Of a DNA stretch of 64,000 nt, positions 13,733 to 50,881 are shown piece after piece; position 1 is the first letter of the stretch; every line of letters begins with the position of its first letter. Under the pieces are notes generated by a model that was not told the origin of the DNA, made no database searches, and saw only the letters and a list, made by a program, of their open reading frames with translations. The position numbers and the translations under genes are program-made. Origin of the DNA: Ginglymostoma cirratum (lineage: Eukaryota); contig JAHRHZ010000041.1 of assembly GCA_024137785.1 (NCBI GenBank), positions 15,292,385 through 15,356,384 on the forward strand. Reading direction: 5' to 3'.

Positions 13733-13802
13733 CTCAAAACACTAACACTCTCTCTTTCTCTTCACCAATGCTGCCAGTCCTGCTGAGTTTCTCCAGCTGT
13801 TA
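13733..13802 (+). mobile_element. PLE pseudo-LTR fragment (family B)
   Basis: atgctgccagtcctgctgagtttctccagc matches 36750-36778. Confidence 0.6.
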
Positions 13803-18855: not shown

Positions 18856-20971
18856 TGACAAATGAGCACAGGGCTTTGAATGTAGGGGTTACCTTACGAG
18901 CCCGATCAAAACCTATTCATGTCACCAGGCCCCCATTTAAACAATAACTAGAACGGATGGCAGGAGCACCCCGGATTCCCAGCCAAAGGGTCTGGGGATG
19001 CTGGTGGCCAGAATGCTGGTTATAAATGAAGCAATAAGTGACCAGGTGGTATTTGGGGGCCACACACATGCCATCTGCATCAGGTGACAACAGTTTTAAA
19101 AATGTCAAGTTAGAGAAATGATAAAGTGAATGAAAATGTTGGATATATTTCAAGTCACCATGACTAGGTTCCATGATTAAACACACTTGAAAAGAAAAAA
19201 AATTCATCTAGATGTTTTTCTTAAATGTGAACAAGGTTTACAAGACAAGACAGATTTTCACAGCAACTAATTTGAAAGGTTCCAGAAAGCTCCCAGGTGA
19301 GAAGAGACCAAGTTGGGAACAAGGAAGTATGAAACATTGCAGTCTCAGTCTCAGTCTCAAAGCAGTTATTTATCAAGCGCAGAAACAAAATTCAAAAACC
19401 TGCTCTACATACAATCCAAAGGAGACAGAAATCGGATGTCTTCGATACCTGAACCGAAAGGAAAACAAAGACACCCCCCTTCTGTCCTTGTGCCCCTACA
19501 AGGCTGAACCAGGTTCTGAAAAGGAAGCTTCAAGATGCCAAGTTGCCATTCATCAGTACAAACATTGGGGAGGTCAGTAAGTCAGTTTGAGCTAGGGAGA
19601 AGCAGGTCAGCTAAACTGGTTAATGAGACAGCTCAAGGTGCTGAAACATGGTTTTATTAAAACTCTCACACTGACGGGGTTAGTAATGCCTTCAAACCAG
19701 CTTTCCCAAGTCAGGAAAGAAATTTAACCTTGAAATACAGTATATGCGAGTGCACACATAGATATCTGCATTCTTTGGCATGGGAAAGGAACTGGGATCA
19801 GGGTTGGATGGTGCAGCTACAATGCAAGATAGCCCTCAGACTCTTTCAGACCTGGGGCAGGCATTTGATGAAAATGTTTTAAAAAAAGTGGAAAGCACTC
19901 TTTCAGTCATCCAAATCAAAACATCAGAAATCAGCTTTTGGTTCAGGCTGGAGTTGGTGGACACAATACCATTTGCTGTTTCTGGCAAAAAAAAGGGTTA
20001 ATGCCTCAATAGACTTGGCTTGGTGGTTATGGAGTTAATGTGTACACGTACTAATTTGAGTGTTGTTGTTTCAATGCTGACACAGTGTAACGGAGTAGAA
20101 TTTCCTCATCTTCCAGAAAGTGAGGCAACACAGCTGGAGAACCGAGCCAGACACATGGCACAGCAGGTTTGCTAAACATTACAAGTGAAAGCCGCTGCAA
20201 CGTGGCCTCCTGTTGAATACAGACCATCATGTGCTTTTGTTCAATGGGCTGCACGTAACTGAAGTGAGCAACTCCTTGTAAAAAAAAAAGGTAACGAAGC
20301 AGTTCTGATTTAAAATTAACCCCTTACTGCTTTCCTCAGTTCTGTCGCAATATACGAGTTTTTTTAAAAAAAAGTCACAAATAAGAACACAAATCAAAGC
20401 CCAGTTTAAACTGATGCAACACAACAACAGTTTATCCTGTCGACAATTTTGTTGAGGAGCAGATGGTTCAAAAACAGAGATTCATTCTAAGCGAAGATAA
20501 TGGCCAGCTTCTTAATACTGTAACAATTATTCAAATGCTTTCAACTTCAATGGTTGATCCAAGGGCTTACCATCAGACTCTGTGGTTTCAATCACAGCTT
20601 TTGAGGGAAAGAGACTTGAACCAGAGAATCCCTACGGTGCAGGAAGAAGCCATTCAGCCCACCCAGTTTGCACCAACCCTCCAAAGAGCATCTCACCCAG
20701 ATCCATTTGCCACCCTATGCTAGTAACCTGCGTTTTCCCTTTATTCCTTCGTAGGGTGAAGGCATCACTGGTCAGACAGCATTTATTGCCCATCCCTAAA
20801 ATTGCCCTGACTGCGGTTGAGAGTCAACCACATTGCTGTGGGTCTGGAGTCACATAGGCCAGACTAGGTAAGAATAGCAGAGATAGCAAGCATGGGGCTG
20901 GATGAACACAGCAGGTCAAGCAGCATCATAGGAGCAGGAAAACTTGACGTTTCGGGCCTAAACCCTTCATC

Positions 20972-21371
20972 NNNNNNNNNNNNNNNNNNNNNNNNNNNNN
21001 NNNNNNNNNNNNNNNNNNNNNNNNNNNNNNNNNNNNNNNNNNNNNNNNNNNNNNNNNNNNNNNNNNNNNNNNNNNNNNNNNNNNNNNNNNNNNNNNNNNN
21101 NNNNNNNNNNNNNNNNNNNNNNNNNNNNNNNNNNNNNNNNNNNNNNNNNNNNNNNNNNNNNNNNNNNNNNNNNNNNNNNNNNNNNNNNNNNNNNNNNNNN
21201 NNNNNNNNNNNNNNNNNNNNNNNNNNNNNNNNNNNNNNNNNNNNNNNNNNNNNNNNNNNNNNNNNNNNNNNNNNNNNNNNNNNNNNNNNNNNNNNNNNNN
21301 NNNNNNNNNNNNNNNNNNNNNNNNNNNNNNNNNNNNNNNNNNNNNNNNNNNNNNNNNNNNNNNNNNNNNNN
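20972..21371. other. 400-N assembly gap, probably spurious
   Basis: The 17 nt after the gap (ggcctaaacccttcatc) repeat the 17 nt before it. Confidence 0.85.
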
Positions 21372-21387
21372 GGCCTAAACCCTTCAT

Positions 21388-21415
21388 CTGATGAAGGGTT
21401 TAGGCCCGAAACGTC
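21388..21415 (+). ncRNA. Minimal type I hammerhead ribozyme motif, core intact
   Basis: CTGATGA-A-GGG(TTTAGG)CCC-GAAA-CGTC: conserved core boxes, stem II, loopless palindromic helix III (ACGT) and a GUC cleavage triplet. Confidence 0.75.
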
Positions 21416-22417
21416 AAGTTTTCCTGCTCCTATGATGCTGCTTGACCTGCTGTGTTCATCCAGCCCCATGCTTGCTATCTCGGATTCTCCAGCATCTGCA
21501 GTACCTTTTATCTCTTAGGTAAGAATAGCAGTTTCCTTCCCTAAAAAGGGCAGTAGTGAACCAGATAGGTTATTCTAACAAATGACAATTGCTTCACAGT
21601 CACCATTAGACTCTAATCCCAGATATTTATTGAATTCGAATTCCAACATCTGCTGTGGAGAGATTTGAACCTGGGTCCCCGGAACTTAGCTGGGTTTCTG
21701 GATCAACAGTCCAGCAATAATTCCACTAGGCCATCACCTCCCCATGGCTACACATCCTTGGATAATACAGGGAAATTTAACTTGACCAATCCATTTAACC
21801 TACACTTCTGAACGGTGGGAGGAAACCCACGTAGACAGACACAGAGAACGTGCCAACTCCACACAGTCAAACAAAACTAGAACAGAACCTGGGTCCCTGG
21901 TGCTGAGACACAGCAGTGTTAATCAGCGAGCCACCCTTTGGAATAGAACCTGCAGAGAACTCCTAAAGACATGAAGATTGCTAATCCCCGCACAGGGTGG
22001 GATACATCAGGTCCCAATAAACAGGACATGGGGCAATAAAAGGGTTTGTTCCCAACCTCCCCAAAAATCAAAAAAAAAAACTTCCAACTTCCCAAAACCT
22101 ATTACATTTTTGATTTTTCTAAACTCAGACAATAAGCTACAAACCTGAAAAGACTGCTTTTCTCTCTAGTCGGGCTGCCTGACTCAATGAACTTCTTCAG
22201 TCTTTCAAATCTATGGGATATTTTGATTCTGTTGAGAGTTACACCATTTCATTGAAAGAAAAAGGGTTTCCACTGAGGTACAGGATGAAACAAAATTCAT
22301 TGGAAAATATAAAGTTCCTCTACTTAGCAGGGTACAAATAATTTAAAATTGGAGATTTCAAGGCAAGGGCACGCAAAATGTATTATTACCTTCACTCACA
22401 CAATGACCTCAAACATT

Positions 22418-31680: not shown

Positions 31681-32311
31681 CAAACCGAAAAATTAGATCA
31701 AGTAGCTACACAAGCTGGTTAGTGCCATAGTGGCACCTCTGTAGCAGCATGGGCACCCACATGTCAACATGTTAATTAGCTGCCCTTTCCTACTGGCATA
31801 ATCCTGGGAACTCATCAGCAACCAATATCAGGGTCATTATGGAATGCTAGGAGAGCCATGGTCTGATTTTAAAATTACCAGGGCTATACCGCAGAACAAA
31901 GATATTAATGCAGGGAAGATTTGAAGTTTTCTGCTAAACCTTAGTTTATAGCTGCTGAAAGAAAGGCACAGTTTGTCAAAGCTTTTTACCTTGTACTCAT
32001 CGGGACAACAAGAAATGAGAATCCCCTTTCCTACAGTATAAATGTGGTTTTCCTTTTACATTGGCATCTCTTGCCATTTTCCCTGCTGGGGGCAAGAAAA
32101 CTGGTCTCTCAGCAATACTCAAGTGCTTTATCACTAATATAATTACTGTAGCATCCCTCAACATTAAGGAGGCTTCTCTCATCGGCAGTATCAAGAGATA
32201 CAGCTTGAAAAATATCACCTTAACTTCTTATACCCAAATATAGCTACCCTCTCCAGCAGGACAGCAAATGGCTAAGGGGTGGATACCAACCAGTACACAA
32301 ACTCTGAGGGT

Positions 32312-32453
32312 TAACACAGTGTGGAGCTGGAGGAACAGGAAAGTCCCGACCCGAAACAGCAACTTTCCTGCTCCTCTGATGCAGCCTAGCCTGCAGTGTT
32401 CCTCCAGCTCTACAGTTATCTCTGACTCCGGCATCTGCAGCTCTTCCTATCTC
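32312..32453 (+). mobile_element. Fold-back PLE pseudo-LTR insertion, decayed
   Basis: Short inverted arm taacacagtgtggagctggaggaacaggaaagt joined to cccgacccgaaacagcaactttcctgctcc...gcatctgcagctcttcctatctc; gggttaa on both flanks. Confidence 0.75.
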
Positions 32454-34959: not shown

Positions 34960-35160
34960 AAGATAGTAGGAACTGCAGATGCTGGAGAATCTGAGATAAC
35001 AAGGTGTAGAGCTGGATGAACACAGCAGGCCAAGCAGCATCAGAAGAGCAGGAAGGCTGACGTTTTGAGGGTCTAGGCCCGAAACAACATCAGCTTTCCT
35101 GCTCCTCTGATGCTGCTTGGCCTGCTGTGTTCATCCAGCTCTACACCTTGTTATCTCAGA
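34960..35160 (-). mobile_element. Fold-back PLE pseudo-LTR insertion with up to 15-bp TSD
   Basis: cagacattctgttca at 34945-34959 and 35157-35171; about 72-bp inverted arms with 3 mismatches; about 33-nt tail on the left. Confidence 0.92.
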
Positions 35161-36695: not shown

Positions 36696-36830
36696 CTGAG
36701 GGTCGGTCATTGGACCCAAAGTGTTAACGCTGATTTTTTTCTTCACAGATGCTGCCAGACCTGCTGAGCTTCTCCAGCAACTTTGTTTTTGTTCCCGATT
36801 TACAGCATCTGCAGTTCTTTTGGTCTTTAT
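36696..36830 (+). mobile_element. PLE pseudo-LTR (family B) with decayed hammerhead
   Basis: ctgagggtcggtcattggacccaaagtgttaac...gatgctgccagacctgctgagc...agcatctgcagttc; possible TSD catgttataca / cacgttatata. Confidence 0.7.
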
Positions 36831-37104: not shown

Positions 37105-37228
37105 ACAAGATGGTAAGAACTGCTGATGCTGGAGTCAGATAACACAGTGCGGAGCTGGAGGAACACAGCAGGCCAGGCAGCAGAGGAGCAGGAAAGCTGA
37201 CGTTTCGGGTCAGGACCCTTCTTCAGAA
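37105..37228 (-). mobile_element. Single-arm PLE pseudo-LTR insertion
   Basis: Same family as 20881 and 34960; candidate TSD atggatgagata 37093-37104 / atggatgaggta 37229-37240. Confidence 0.85.
37199..37226 (-). ncRNA. Minimal type I hammerhead ribozyme motif, core intact
   Basis: The minus strand reads CTGAAGA-A-GGGTC(CT)GACCC-GAAA-CGTC^AGC. Confidence 0.78.
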
Positions 37229-40200
37229 ATGGATGAGGTAGTGTTTGTTGCCCATGTTAAATTGTTTTTGAAAAATCAAACAAAAAAAAAAACTTAAAAT
37301 CAAGAATGTTTGAAGCTTTCTAATAAAACTATAAAAACTAAAACAAAATCTACTCTCCATATAAAAGGTGAAAAAACAGACTGCGTTTAAAAGCAAAACT
37401 ACTGATTTTCATTTTAAAAATTAACATTCCCTGTAGTGTTAAGGTGGTTTGTGGTCAATCTCATTTGAGGCTTAGAGCAGTGGGTTAATTTAAGTTCATT
37501 AGCTTTAAAGTTAGGGGAAAAAAAAAGGAATCATTTGCATCACTGAACCCTGATAAATTCTAATTTGTTTTAATTCTTAAATTCAGTTCATCAGATTGTT
37601 ATTTTCTGCTGCAGCATGTCATTAATATAAATTCAAGTACTTTAGAAATAAAAGTCACAACAGATTTAATTAAGGTGACTACATCACCAAATCAGTCAAA
37701 ACTTGGCAGCATTTCCTATTGGAGAAGTTGACTAGACTCCATCCTGAATACTGACTGCATTCAGTTCTATTTAGAGACAACAATCAGGAACACCAAGCCT
37801 GTTAGCAGAAGGGCAATGAGGTTTGTTCTCTAGTGCCTGAAAACTCACTTGAGGATGAGGTGCGACAGTTTGAAATATTCAGCCTTTGAAGGACGGCACA
37901 GGAGAGAGAGTGGGGGATTTTATGATGGAGCAAACAGTACTCCAATTTAAATTCCAAATGCAGAAGACACATTGGGTACAAGGAGAAAGGCAAATTTACG
38001 CACAAAGCACTTTGCTTACGGTGAATAAAGCCTGGGTCATAGTCAACAAGTGTAAAGCTGCGGGATCTGAATGTGCATCCGTGTTTCAGCCAAACAGGTT
38101 CTCATGTTATTGCATTTTTGGAGACGGAATTCAATGGCAAAAATGTGGTCGCACATGAAATTGCACTTGCGCAGTTTAAATGTTAAAAATTTTTTAAAAT
38201 GCTTGCAATGGATACACCAGGACATCTCTTCGTAGATATACACAGCACACAGAGTTCAAGGCAGTTGTGGAATAACTCAGTGCTGATAGCAGAAAGCTCT
38301 CAGGCACTCTAAGATATGGTTAACAAAGGACCACCCACCACTCTAATACATTGAAAAACTTAACTGATGGGAGCTTGTTCAAAAGGTTCATCTTGATGTA
38401 TGAAATCTATCTGGAATTCATACACAGCTGCAAAAAGGTTATGTGTAACACACAACAGTGAAAGAAAAGTCTCAAAAAGCAAAAATTTCCTTGGCTCCAA
38501 CACCACATTCCTCACATCAATGCACTTCACTGACAAGGAACTGGAGGGCTGACCTTTCAAATTTCCTCGACAGTCACCTTCAACCTGACCCCTCATTAAG
38601 CCACAAAATCTCTAAGATGTTGGCTGCATTCTCCTCAGAGTAAATGCAGCCATTTATAATAAAAATAGCATGTTGGATACACAGCAGATAAGCAGCTAGG
38701 GCAAGTACTTGCAAGCAGAGCATTAAAGAAAATAGAAGCAACAATAAAGTAAAAGGAGAGGAGGTAAATTAGGATCAGTCTTTGGTAATACAGGGCAGCA
38801 AAACTAATACAAACCAGCTAATCACAAACTAATCAAAGGCAATTCAGTACTATTTCTAGTAAACTTAATTTTTTCAAGCCAACAAACTGAGCGGGTTTCA
38901 AAGCAAGAAGATTACTTTTTAAAAGAAATGTTGAGTATTATGTGAAAGAAATGAGCACATTTTGGTGAAGTATCAAGACAAAGCAATCCTACATTAGTTG
39001 TGTGTAACTCAAGTGCTCAGGACTATCTAGTAAATGTAATCCAACAATAGGACAGCATTTAATGTTGGACACATATGGGTTTGGTAAGCCCAAACTGCCT
39101 GGATACACCGTCAGTATCTTGCCTGCTCTGAACATCCAAAGGATACGCATAATGGTGAAGCAGTAGCAGTGCCATCTCCTCCAGGTGTTGCAACATGTTA
39201 GAATCAGCTTGACTAGAAAAAAATTTGCTTGACATGATCCACTAGTCTTGACTAACAGGTGAAGCTTGCTGCCTCCCAGCTATTACTATGCGATACAGTG
39301 GCAACTCAAGTGGTGTTCACCACTAACTGGGTGTTGGCTTAAATCTAAAAAAAAAATTAGAAAAATGCACAATATGAATTTCAGAGCTGGTGTTATGTCA
39401 GGTGCATAGATCATACAACCTGCTCATCTTTTGGATGGTATCAAACAGTACGTCCCTATGACAGCTCAAGTTACTGACCGCACCCAATCGACCTACACCC
39501 GCAAAACGTGAAACTAGTGCCCAACATTAAATGTGATTTCGCAGACAGACAACACTTGCCAGCTAACCCCGATTGGTTGTCAGCATTATTCACAATGTAG
39601 GATTCAGAGTTGGACTCAGTAGTGCACTGCACTGGAAGCTACATGTATTAATATACAGGGCTCGGTTCTCGGCTCAGACAGAATGGACACGTACATACAC
39701 CATGCCTACTTTCAACTTAAGATGGGTGATAGCAATTGTGGGTTCATTATTCAGTATGATGCCTCGACCAAACTGTCTGGTTTAAAATTTAAACAAAGCC
39801 TGGAAATTGTCAAATCAGGTGTATTTGCCACAGCAATACCTCTACCAATCAGAATCCACTTCCCAACCAGATCAGCAGCCTTCACTCCTGCACTATAAAA
39901 GTCAGTTTTATCTTTGAATTGGTGTTCTTGCAAAATATCCTGTTTGTTGCAAAACAAATTTCAGTCTTTTGCTATCACCAATATTTAAGTTATGCTCCAA
40001 AAATTTTCTTCTGACCCCCACTCCCAAAGACCACATGACTTATTGATTTTCTCTTCACAGGCACCCAATTCAAACTTGTGGGTCTTTCTGTGGGTGAGGC
40101 TGGTAATTCCACACATTAGTGTTGGAAGTTGGACGAAGGGAATGGAATATAGACAAGGGTTACATTGGAGGCCACCTCTACACACTTTGCACCACAGCCT

Positions 40201-48302: not shown

Positions 48303-48439
48303 AAGTAAAACAAAACTGCAAATGCTGAAGATCTGAAACAACTGTTCTGAAGGATCATGAGACTTGAAATGTAGACTCTGCTTTCTTTCCACTGAGGCTG
48401 CCAGACCTGCTGGGTTTCTCCAGCAGGTTCTGTTTTGGT
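48303..48439. mobile_element. Fold-back PLE pseudo-LTR insertion (family B)
   Basis: Tail arm aactgcaaatgctgaagatctgaaac joined to inverted ttctgaaggatcatgagacttgaaatgtagactct...gctgccagacctgctg; candidate TSD atcattttgatta / atcatttaaatta. Confidence 0.65.
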
Positions 48440-48699: not shown

Positions 48700-50132
48700 C
48701 ATCTGTTGGGAGATTTTTGACCTAGTGACAGTGAAGGAGCAGTGACACAGCTCTAAGTCAGGATGGCATGTGTTGAGTAGTTACGCATTGGTGTTCCCAT
48801 GCATCTGCTGCCCTTGTTCTTTACACACTGAAGGTCACTGCTAAAAGGAGACTGGGGTGAGTTACTCTGGAGATAGTTGGAACTGCTCATGCTAGAGAAT
48901 GAGATAACAAGGTGTAGAGCTGGACGAACACAGCAGGCCAGGCAGCAGTAGAGCATCAGGAAAGCTATTCTGAAGCAAGTCCAGACCCAAAACGTCAGCT
49001 TTCCTGCTCGGCCTGCTGTGTTCACCCAGCTCTACACCTGGTTATTGGGGTGAATTACTGGAGGTCCATTTTGTACATGATACACACTGATGCTGCCATA
49101 TATTGGTAGTGGAGGGAGCGATTGTTGATGGTGGTGAAGTAGTAAGCAATGGAATGGCCTCCTTGTCCTGAAGGACATTGAGATATTGTTGGAGCTGCAC
49201 CCATCCAAGCAAGTGGGAAGTATTCCATCATAATCCTGTTTCCTACAGATGGTTGCAAGGCTTTGGGAAGTCAAGGCGAGTTACTACACAACCTCCAGTC
49301 TCTGGCCTGCCCTTCTAACCACAGTATTTAGTTGGTTGCTTCAGTTCAAGGTCTGCTGCTGTTGGGGATTTTAGTGACAGGAACACTGTTGAATGTCAAA
49401 AGGAGTTAGATTCCTCTCATTGGAAATAGTCACTGCCTGACACTTGTGGGACAGAATGTACATTGCTACTCATCAGCTCAAACTGCAACACTGTCCAGGT
49501 CTTAAAACATTGCAAGCACGGACCGCTTCAATGTACCAAAGTGCCATGGGTGTACAAGATATTATGCAATCAGCAACATTTACACTTGGGCTTTCGATGG
49601 AGGAAGACAATTGATTAAGTGGATGAAGGCAGCTTGACCCAAGGCAAAGCCCTAAGGTACTCCTGCAGCAATGATCTAGGACTGAAAATGATGGTCTTTC
49701 AGCAACCACCACCGTTTTCTTTTGCCCAAGTTTGACTCTAACCAAGTAGTGATCTCTCCACCCCAATTCCCAGAGCCTTCAGGTTTTCTGGGGATCATCA
49801 ATGCCACACTTTGTCAAGAAAAATCTCTCATCTCTAGAATTCAGTTCTTCTGTCCATGTTTGAACCAACTGACCTCTCCAGAGCACAAACTGAGCAAAGA
49901 GCAGACTAATGCTGGGTAAATGCTTCTTGATAGCAGTGTCAAAGACAAATCAAAAGTAAAGTGGGACTAGACCAAAGGGACAGTAACTGGTCAGACTGGA
50001 AATGCCCTGCTTTGAATGGTCAGGACATACCTGCACAATTTTCCATATTGTCAGACAGACGCCAGCATTGTAGCTGTGAAAGGAACAGCCTTGCTAAGAG
50101 CTGGCCTAGTTCTGGAGCACAAGACTTCAGTT
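48700..50132 (-). mobile_element. Decayed CR1/L2-group LINE RT region (family of 18237)
   Basis: LKSCAPELGQLLARLF..SYNAGVCLTIWKIVQVCP near 50020-50130 and MEYFPLAWMGAAPT at about 49190-49230. Confidence 0.8.
48867..49045 (-). mobile_element. Fold-back PLE pseudo-LTR insertion within the LINE, 14-bp TSD
   Basis: tggggtgagttact 48853-48866 / tggggtgaattact 49046-49059; inverted arms meet at 48966/48967. Confidence 0.85.
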
Positions 50133-50739: not shown

Positions 50740-50881
50740 CAAAAAGAAACCAAAAAGAACTGCGGGTGCTGGAAATCAGAAATAGAAACAGAAGTTGATG
50801 GGAAAACTCAGCAGATCTGGCAGCAACTGTGGAGAGAGATCAGAGTTAACATTTGAGGTCCAGCACCCTTTCTTCAGGACT
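50740..50881 (-). mobile_element. Single-arm PLE pseudo-LTR (family B) with 12-bp TSD
   Basis: ggctcgattaaa 50728-50739 / ggcttgattaaa 50882-50893; decayed core CTGAAGAAAGGGTGCTGGACCTCAAATGTT. Confidence 0.75.

Follow-up and report, generated by a model that had tools for sequence, protein, structure and literature searches.

5' ends of head-to-head Penelope-like insertions in Ginglymostoma cirratum gather at the 5' edge of the hammerhead, a likely transcription start, with ribozyme cleavage as a probable minor contributor at most

What sets the 5' end of the cDNA when a Penelope-like element that carries a hammerhead ribozyme is copied into a genome? The question is raised by a fold-back in Ginglymostoma cirratum, within a 64,000-nucleotide stretch of contig JAHRHZ010000041.1 (the window), in which one of two facing arms begins exactly at the predicted cleavage site of the ribozyme. 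From this junction the original prediction proposed that ribozyme cleavage or ribozyme structure sets the 5' end of the reverse-transcribed template. In what follows, bases are numbered from the predicted cut: +1 is the base right after GUC, -1 is C17, core C3 lies at -28 and the A of CCATTT at -32. Subfamilies reading GTC-AGC (A, B) are called single-A and those reading GTC-AAG (C, D) double-A, both labels being those of this study. Positions 48853-49059 hold one insertion, made of two head-to-head Penelope-like arms bounded by 14-nt target duplications, and the limits first assigned to it run exactly from one duplication to the other:

48853-48866, plus strand: left target-site duplication, 14 nt, identical to 49046-49059 at 13 of 14 positions
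48870-48966, minus strand: tail-bearing pseudo-LTR arm of single-A type that begins at +1, right behind the predicted GUC cut
48967, between the arms: lone A at the head-to-head junction, a gap of 1 nt
48967-49000, plus strand: decayed minimal type I hammerhead of the plus arm, predicted cut at 48996/48997
48968-49045, plus strand: tail-less arm, 5' end at -30, within the family-wide wall; 14-nt internal deletion
49046-49059, plus strand: right target-site duplication, partner of 48853-48866

The family reads GAAACGTC-AGCTTTCC, as was first described, and this text is found exactly at 37191-37206 on the minus strand. The placement of the focal minus arm also held: plus-strand ggaaagct stops at 48966, where the arm starts at +1 with AGCTTTCC, and the tail is present. 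At 48959-48976 the junction reads ggaaagct a ttctgaagc. The A at 48967 may be filler, or the initiator A of the plus arm (-32) with one T missing; from the sequence the two cannot be told apart. The tail-bearing arm shares about 88% identity with a natural copy and is therefore old, and the core of the plus-arm hammerhead, CTGAAGC and AAAAC, is altered from the family in both boxes.

Family copies fit a minimal type I hammerhead, with the CUGANGA and GAAA boxes, stem II, a palindromic 15.2-16.2, an NUH triplet and a short helix I, and self-cleavage after GUC is predicted; the excess of ends at +1 described below bears on it indirectly. Helix I comprises 3-4 contiguous pairs in C and D, and 2 pairs plus a mismatch in A and B. 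Within the 64,000 nt of the window the hammerhead-cut motif has 3 matches at up to 2 mismatches, where 0.02 are expected by chance; an Rfam scan of the whole window gave zero matches at the gathering score. Single motifs, when folded, did not give the hammerhead and scored no better than shuffles (z from -0.5 to 0.1), so that a monomeric hammerhead is not supported. A 61-nt junction piece has a low energy, which is just that of the fold-back.

The focal locus belongs to a set of tens of thousands of head-to-head Penelope-like insertions, and one 35-base tail motif is matched exactly 58,529 times in the 4.36-Gb genome. Long copies carry an upstream broken-frame ORF with reverse transcriptase motifs (GPSYA, YIDD), followed by a YIG domain. 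The best ESM Atlas hits are GIY-YIG clusters (scores 0.96-0.97), Pfam gives GIY-YIG (E=0.092) and RVT_1 (E=0.12) below its cut-off and no hit for the element protein at E<=0.01, and a PDB sequence search returned no hit. By its sequence the element is an endonuclease-bearing Penelope-like element, reverse transcriptase first and GIY-YIG at the C-terminus. Its linker between the two domains, CNRRKCYTC, fits the CX2-5CxxC criterion given for Neptune/Nematis in the accessible text of PMC8557442, and it is therefore provisionally called Neptune/Nematis-like by that linker. Upstream, long arms have up to about 1.8 kb in common (matches within one insertion or to a nested copy excluded), and no full-length copy was found among the genome stretches examined. 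The inverted 5'-truncated copy, optional 30-40-nt tail and target duplication of such elements are all seen: there are 61 close head-to-head pairs, 49 of them with the tail on one arm, and the duplications of filtered pairs are mostly 10-16 nt, with a filter that lets through 29 of 150 random draws.

Arms were searched from a downstream anchor over 1,147,392 non-N bases, and their 5' ends were called against per-column scores of natural copies. For families A-D, 301 arms were found, 268 with a readable junction and 33 dropped as the junction touches N or the stretch end; a further 30 loci picked for likeness to the full hammerhead were excluded from the histogram. Loss per base was computed on 262 arms, after removal of six rows with identical junction text, three of which are long copies and probably not true duplicates. 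One contig gives 225 of these 262 arms, and many arms come from stretches centred on exact tail matches. Five 100-kb blocks are all N and contributed no arms, and the assembly is gapped at many palindromes, which limits the histogram of ends. The caller recovered simulated +1 ends exactly in 46 of 60 trials, so that a peak at +1 would not be hidden by it.

The histogram of 5' ends proposed with the original prediction was the right test, and the sharp +1 peak called for there is absent. Among the 268 junctions, the focal arm is the only one called at +1, against 86 at -34 to -29, 37 of them at -31; two arms beginning with AGC were scored +2 and would be +1 if single-A, raising the count to up to 3/268. 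Eight ends fall at +1 to +3 and 39 lie past -165. Smooth decay of truncation points, named beforehand as the outcome against the prediction, is likewise absent; instead, the 5' edge of the hammerhead forms a hard wall. The predicted ribozyme cut lies about 31 bases downstream of the most common end, and the wall sits on an initiator-like CCA/TTT. Loss per base (n=262) is 10% at -34 to -29 and 30% at -31; it is 2.3% at -28 to -16, 0.54% at -15 to -4, 0.46% at +1 (95% upper bound 2.1%), 0.49% at +4 to +27 and 0.2% beyond -46. A shoulder of ends at -28 to -16 (61 of 203 at risk) shows a slight rise at -23 to -20. Genome-wide, five further family bases are present past -31 in 8,225 of 20,571 copies and past the cut in 35,250 of 45,297; the shortfall at the cut, as sampled, consisted in 13 of 13 cases of the double-A subfamily, a point change or a gap, with no truncations. 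The wall is thinner outside the main contig (6/37).

Three further loci of the window serve for comparison:

32295-32452: head-to-head pair from the original prediction; short arm ambiguous, +2/+3 only across a 28-nt gap
34961-35160: head-to-head pair with a 13-nt overlap on stem II
37105-37232, minus strand: solo arm with intact core, beginning at the likely transcription start

In the original prediction, the short arm facing 32343 was said to end within about 1 nt of the same point as the focal arm. This second case is weak: the arm reaches +2/+3 only through an 8-9-nt island past the gap, and the profile caller places it at +28. The remark that other arms of the window begin in or just before the core was borne out at 21387 (-29), 35068 and 35080 (-21, -20), 53701 (-18) and 32343 (-18). 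The arm near 37228 was called at -40; its flank CTCATCCAT recurs on the 3' side as a target duplication, which puts the start near -31 to -34. At 20880-21481 a 400-N gap separates two facing arms, and the junction sequence is repeated on either side of it; the assembly has probably split a single fold-back here. Other stretches likewise hold such pairs, with N and a spacing of about 500 bases.

The wall of the short arms is most likely a transcription start at the first base of the hammerhead, and the arms run-off cDNAs of uncleaved RNA, a reading that draws on promoter-like motifs. TATA and initiator have consensus motifs, and the box normally lies about 30 nt before the initiator A. In A-D, TATWWA occurs upstream in 40 of 119 cores, exactly at -31 from the A of CCATTT in 36 of the 40; the box, TATTTAT, is a functional but non-canonical TATA variant. 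In family E, where C3 is -30 and the initiator A -34 in its own numbering, the upstream sequence is unrelated to that of A-D, and a canonical TATAAA box precedes the A of TCAGTT by 29 bases in 8 of 9 copies. The one long copy of family F carries TATAAAT at -30 (1/1). The 5' ends of E fall at -35 to -31 in 42 of 127 arms and at +1 in one. Among 100 listed of the 12,721 matches to a single family E pattern, 64 of the 68 rows that are not long copies end, by eye, within four bases at CAGT. The wall A opens the four-base helix I strand in every family from A to F. Against this reading stand the non-canonical form of the A-D box and the promoter of Drosophila Penelope, described in the accessible text of PMC2377424 as internal and TATA-less. 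The window also holds family E arms with their own hammerhead at 13754-13798, 36750-36821, 48377-48424 and 50753-50835, and more hammerhead-bearing repeat families exist at lower copy number, e.g., F with AGCT/AGCT helix I.

Against a start at the A stands the mode, which is the second base (-31) and not the A itself (-32). Simulated -32 ends were placed at -31 in just 2 of 60 trials, so one base must be lost or miscopied. An extra T precedes 28 of the 37 arms at -31 (P=0.001 vs other ends), which would agree with a cap-adjacent base that is lost or miscopied, or with slippage on UUU; a cap-derived G was sought by eye at the arm ends and was not evident. The extra T, and the position of the wall at a T run adjoining a C tract, would also suit a stop set by sequence, through a stall before the C-rich tract or pairing of TTT with T-rich target ends. 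Such a stop is improbable, as other T runs (+4 to +6, about -55 to -62) have no such peak, arms past the wall traverse hundreds of C-rich bases at 0.2% loss per base, and the wall of family E lies at AGTT with no adjoining C tract; the fixed TATA spacing and the pairing of long arms with long ones would be left unexplained. That the wall reflects a 3' splice site where helix I begins is very unlikely. The intron of Drosophila virilis Penelope ends at the 5' end of helix I according to the accessible text of PMC4209133, and the family E wall reads CAG/TT; however, the wall of A-D lacks an AG, the ends of family E fall for the most part 1-3 bases upstream of its AG boundary, and where a spliced template would show a common upstream exon the arms are flanked by target duplication, partner arm or filler.

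A transcription start at the wall, then, remains the favoured reading, and the head-to-head pairs can be set beside it. At least one arm lies at the wall in 36 of the 61 close pairs and one arm at -1 to +3 in 5; the tail is on exactly one arm in 49. Pair junctions comprise 20 overlaps, 35 with filler (often copied from nearby) and 6 blunt joins. Several pairs are joined by 13-16-nt overlaps on stem II. Among 62 duplication-filtered pairs, long-long, long-short and short-short combinations number 8, 2 and 52 (expected 1.3, 15.4 and 45.3); since long arms pair with long and short with short, both arms usually come from the same kind of template. At L108:3760-4300 a single-A arm of another subfamily comes straight after a long double-A arm, both pointing the same way. 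Palindromes are deletion-prone, the focal copy is old, and some joins are perfect and centred on AAGCTT or AGCT, all of which would allow the fold-back junctions, the focal one included, to have been set after insertion by deletion at the hairpin centre. This too has a low probability: solo arms share the wall (39 of 146 at -34 to -29), and filler has been added in the 35 pair junctions noted above.

In the accessible text of PMC11167929, the Poseidon element of the anole has both target strands cut and extended, and two internal start sites define the tail. The observed pairs match this scheme in its two-strand extension and in a tail from two internal sites. Ribozyme mutants of Poseidon insert normally according to the same text, and zero RNA-seq reads begin or end at the cut. 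For the shark element, RNA polymerase II would initiate at the A that doubles as the first base of helix I, and the element protein would prime one cDNA from each side of a staggered target cut. Reverse transcription may begin internally, 65-100 nt 3' of the ribozyme cut, at two adjacent sites, as for the anole element in vitro. If the start-proximal pseudo-LTR is used, the cDNA would run off the capped end after about 100-130 nt; if the downstream one is used, both arms would extend into the 3' UTR and ORF. The two cDNA 3' ends would then be trimmed and joined with microhomology or templated filler. The focal locus is such a pair of short pseudo-LTR arms, probably made by dual-side priming, in which RNA that was likely uncleaved was copied to or towards its start, and in which the +1 arm likely arose by chance.

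The ends near the cut were followed further. In the first sample 19 ends lie at +1 to +7 and 4 at -7 to -1, a post hoc count. A follow-up test was fixed beforehand, with fresh junctions drawn genome-wide by patterns blind to position between -8 and +9. It was passed in double-A: among 100 listed of 3,553 matches, read by eye with 6 rows set aside as internal deletions, 55 ends lie just 3' of the cut and 16 just 5', and 17 are at +1, of which 7 are perfect palindromes centred on AAGCTT. When 41 of these arms were re-called by script, the counts across the cut were 22 vs 6 (P=0.004), with nine at +1, one of them probably an internal deletion and five palindrome-type joins. It failed in single-A, the focal type, where 100 listed of 2,861 matches (14 rows set aside) show 27 vs 26 and no step; +1 has 9 ends vs a mean of 3.1 (P=0.005), a weak excess in which 4 of 9 are AGCT-centred. 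Once palindrome-centred arms are removed, P for the +1 excess is 0.013 in double-A and 0.2 in single-A. The step seen in double-A only fits the stronger helix I pairing of C and D. The excess is partly due to palindrome joins, and ends remain high at +5 to +8 (33/100); for these two reasons the case for ribozyme cleavage as its cause is evenly balanced. As rough estimates, scaled by sample ratios and a capture rate near 0.4, +1 ends make up roughly 2-3% of double-A and <1% of single-A arms, or 1-3% overall, a minor class that would likely come from ribozyme-cut RNA. Three-mismatch genome counts are contaminated by 1-nt indels, and their corrections, made by eye, are rough.

Stem II appears to add minor effects, seen as ends at -8 and as stem II skips. 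A cluster of ends falls at -8, on the GAAA G that lies at the foot of stem II, in 30 of 100 single-A and 8 of 100 double-A rows; the pile-up is in part an edge effect and in part possibly a structural stop. In single-A it takes in stem II skips and diverged intact arms, and one double-A row at -8 was re-called at -29. The single-A list contains a recurrent deletion that joins GGGTC to the triplet GTC and removes stem II and GAAAC; it accounts for most of the 14 of 100 rows set aside and is likely a jump across the hairpin. Two arms (G000:C2:5764789 and G000:C3:8452831) lack exactly +1 to +8, in a deletion that starts at the predicted cut.

Was the focal minus arm, then, copied from hammerhead-cleaved RNA, the cDNA running off at a 5'-OH? 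This account concerns the focal arm and the minor class, not the family, and for the focal arm it is a less likely one than chance. The arm does start exactly at +1, double-A shows the step by eye, by script and in the first sample (10 vs 0) with its mode at +1 and has the better-paired helix I, and the single-A list has its own excess at +1. On the other side, the focal arm belongs to the stepless subfamily, whose excess fades once AGCT-centred palindromes are removed; three-mismatch counts before correction are flat (65 at +1, 51 at +2, 69 at -1), and about 10 of 30 loci at +1 are small indels. Family E, with a perfect, 4-bp helix I but a GUU triplet, has the single +1 end among 127 already given, and the partner arm holds the entire ribozyme and thus comes from uncleaved RNA. 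The sample has one end at +1 and a mean of 1.24 ends per base over -15 to +27; the focal +1 end is no more than chance for a single copy. The focal junction is probably a chance stop, and a ribozyme-cut template for its minus arm is a distinctly weaker possibility. For most arms, whose 5' ends are set by a likely transcription start at the first hammerhead base, the original prediction did not hold; it is partly supported in that cleavage and hammerhead structure are minor contributors, not the rule, and ribozyme cleavage is likely at most a minor route.

The element belongs to a known kind, as inverted pseudo-LTRs, tails, hammerheads and a start inside the pseudo-LTR have all been known; what may be new is the map of 5' ends. 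No published report of Penelope 5' ends at a start site or a cut was found in the accessible literature that was searched. Like Neptune/Nematis elements, the shark element has a CX2-5CxxC linker before GIY-YIG, 5'-truncated copies, an inverted 5' copy and a tail, whereas most of its copies are 100-130-nt pseudo-LTR pieces. With Poseidon of Anolis carolinensis (PAc; PMC11167929, accessible text) it shares a reverse transcriptase with C-terminal GIY-YIG, a pseudo-LTR hammerhead, an optional tail from two internal start sites and a main template of uncleaved RNA; it differs in a CX4CxxC linker, which the accessible text of PMC8557442 gives as absent from Poseidon. The Poseidon study maps 3' ends, and a map from 5' ends to promoter was not found in its main text as accessible. 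The minimal type I hammerheads of metazoan Penelope-like elements (PMC4209133, accessible text) have the same core boxes, a bulged base before stem II, a palindromic CG replacing helix III and a short helix I. Helix I of the shark element, unlike theirs, seems to start with the first transcribed base and comprises 2-4 pairs only, and cleavage for precursor processing, proposed in that text, contrasts with a shark genome record in which most templates are uncut.

The pseudo-LTRs of Adineta vaga Penelope elements, as given in the accessible text of PMC3846280, are similar in the head-to-head inverted pseudo-LTR, the short target duplication and the putative TATA and initiator inside the pseudo-LTR. 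Their authors proposed self-priming on an antisense template (PMC3846280, accessible text), whereas the shark ends fit two sense-template cDNAs bounded by a sense start. An identity as non-LTR retrozyme was rejected, the examined copies being solo or head-to-head with target duplications; such retrozymes form head-to-tail tandem units, each with a hammerhead, in the accessible text of 10.64898/2026.07.22.740005. Unlike those of L1 and retroviruses, shark arms would begin at element-specific internal sites and duplicate the same sequence, with no tRNA primer and no poly(A) priming. In L1 twin priming both target strands prime and the products are joined by microhomology, and retroviral strong-stop DNA is a short cDNA that runs off at a capped 5' end; the shark element would share these features.

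The role of the hammerhead in Penelope-like elements and the origin of head-to-head repeats are called open in the accessible texts of PMC8557442, PMC3846280 and PMC11167929. More than 58,000 exact tail copies constitute a large natural record of cDNA stop points, and the record says that most templates are uncut and end at the first base of the ribozyme, with cleavage at a few percent at most and dependent on subfamily. The end map names exact bases: the start A, the TATA-like box and the helix I variants. It is possible, though somewhat doubtful, that these copies form a fossil record of Penelope templates with two walls, a major one at the capped start, the first hammerhead base, and a minor one at the cut in the best-pairing subfamilies. 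If this is true, it would be in vivo evidence that a minimal hammerhead removes the capped first 32 bases and that cut RNA still inserts. One ribonucleoprotein would then prime both target strands from a single kind of template, and promoterless short copies would be mass-produced.
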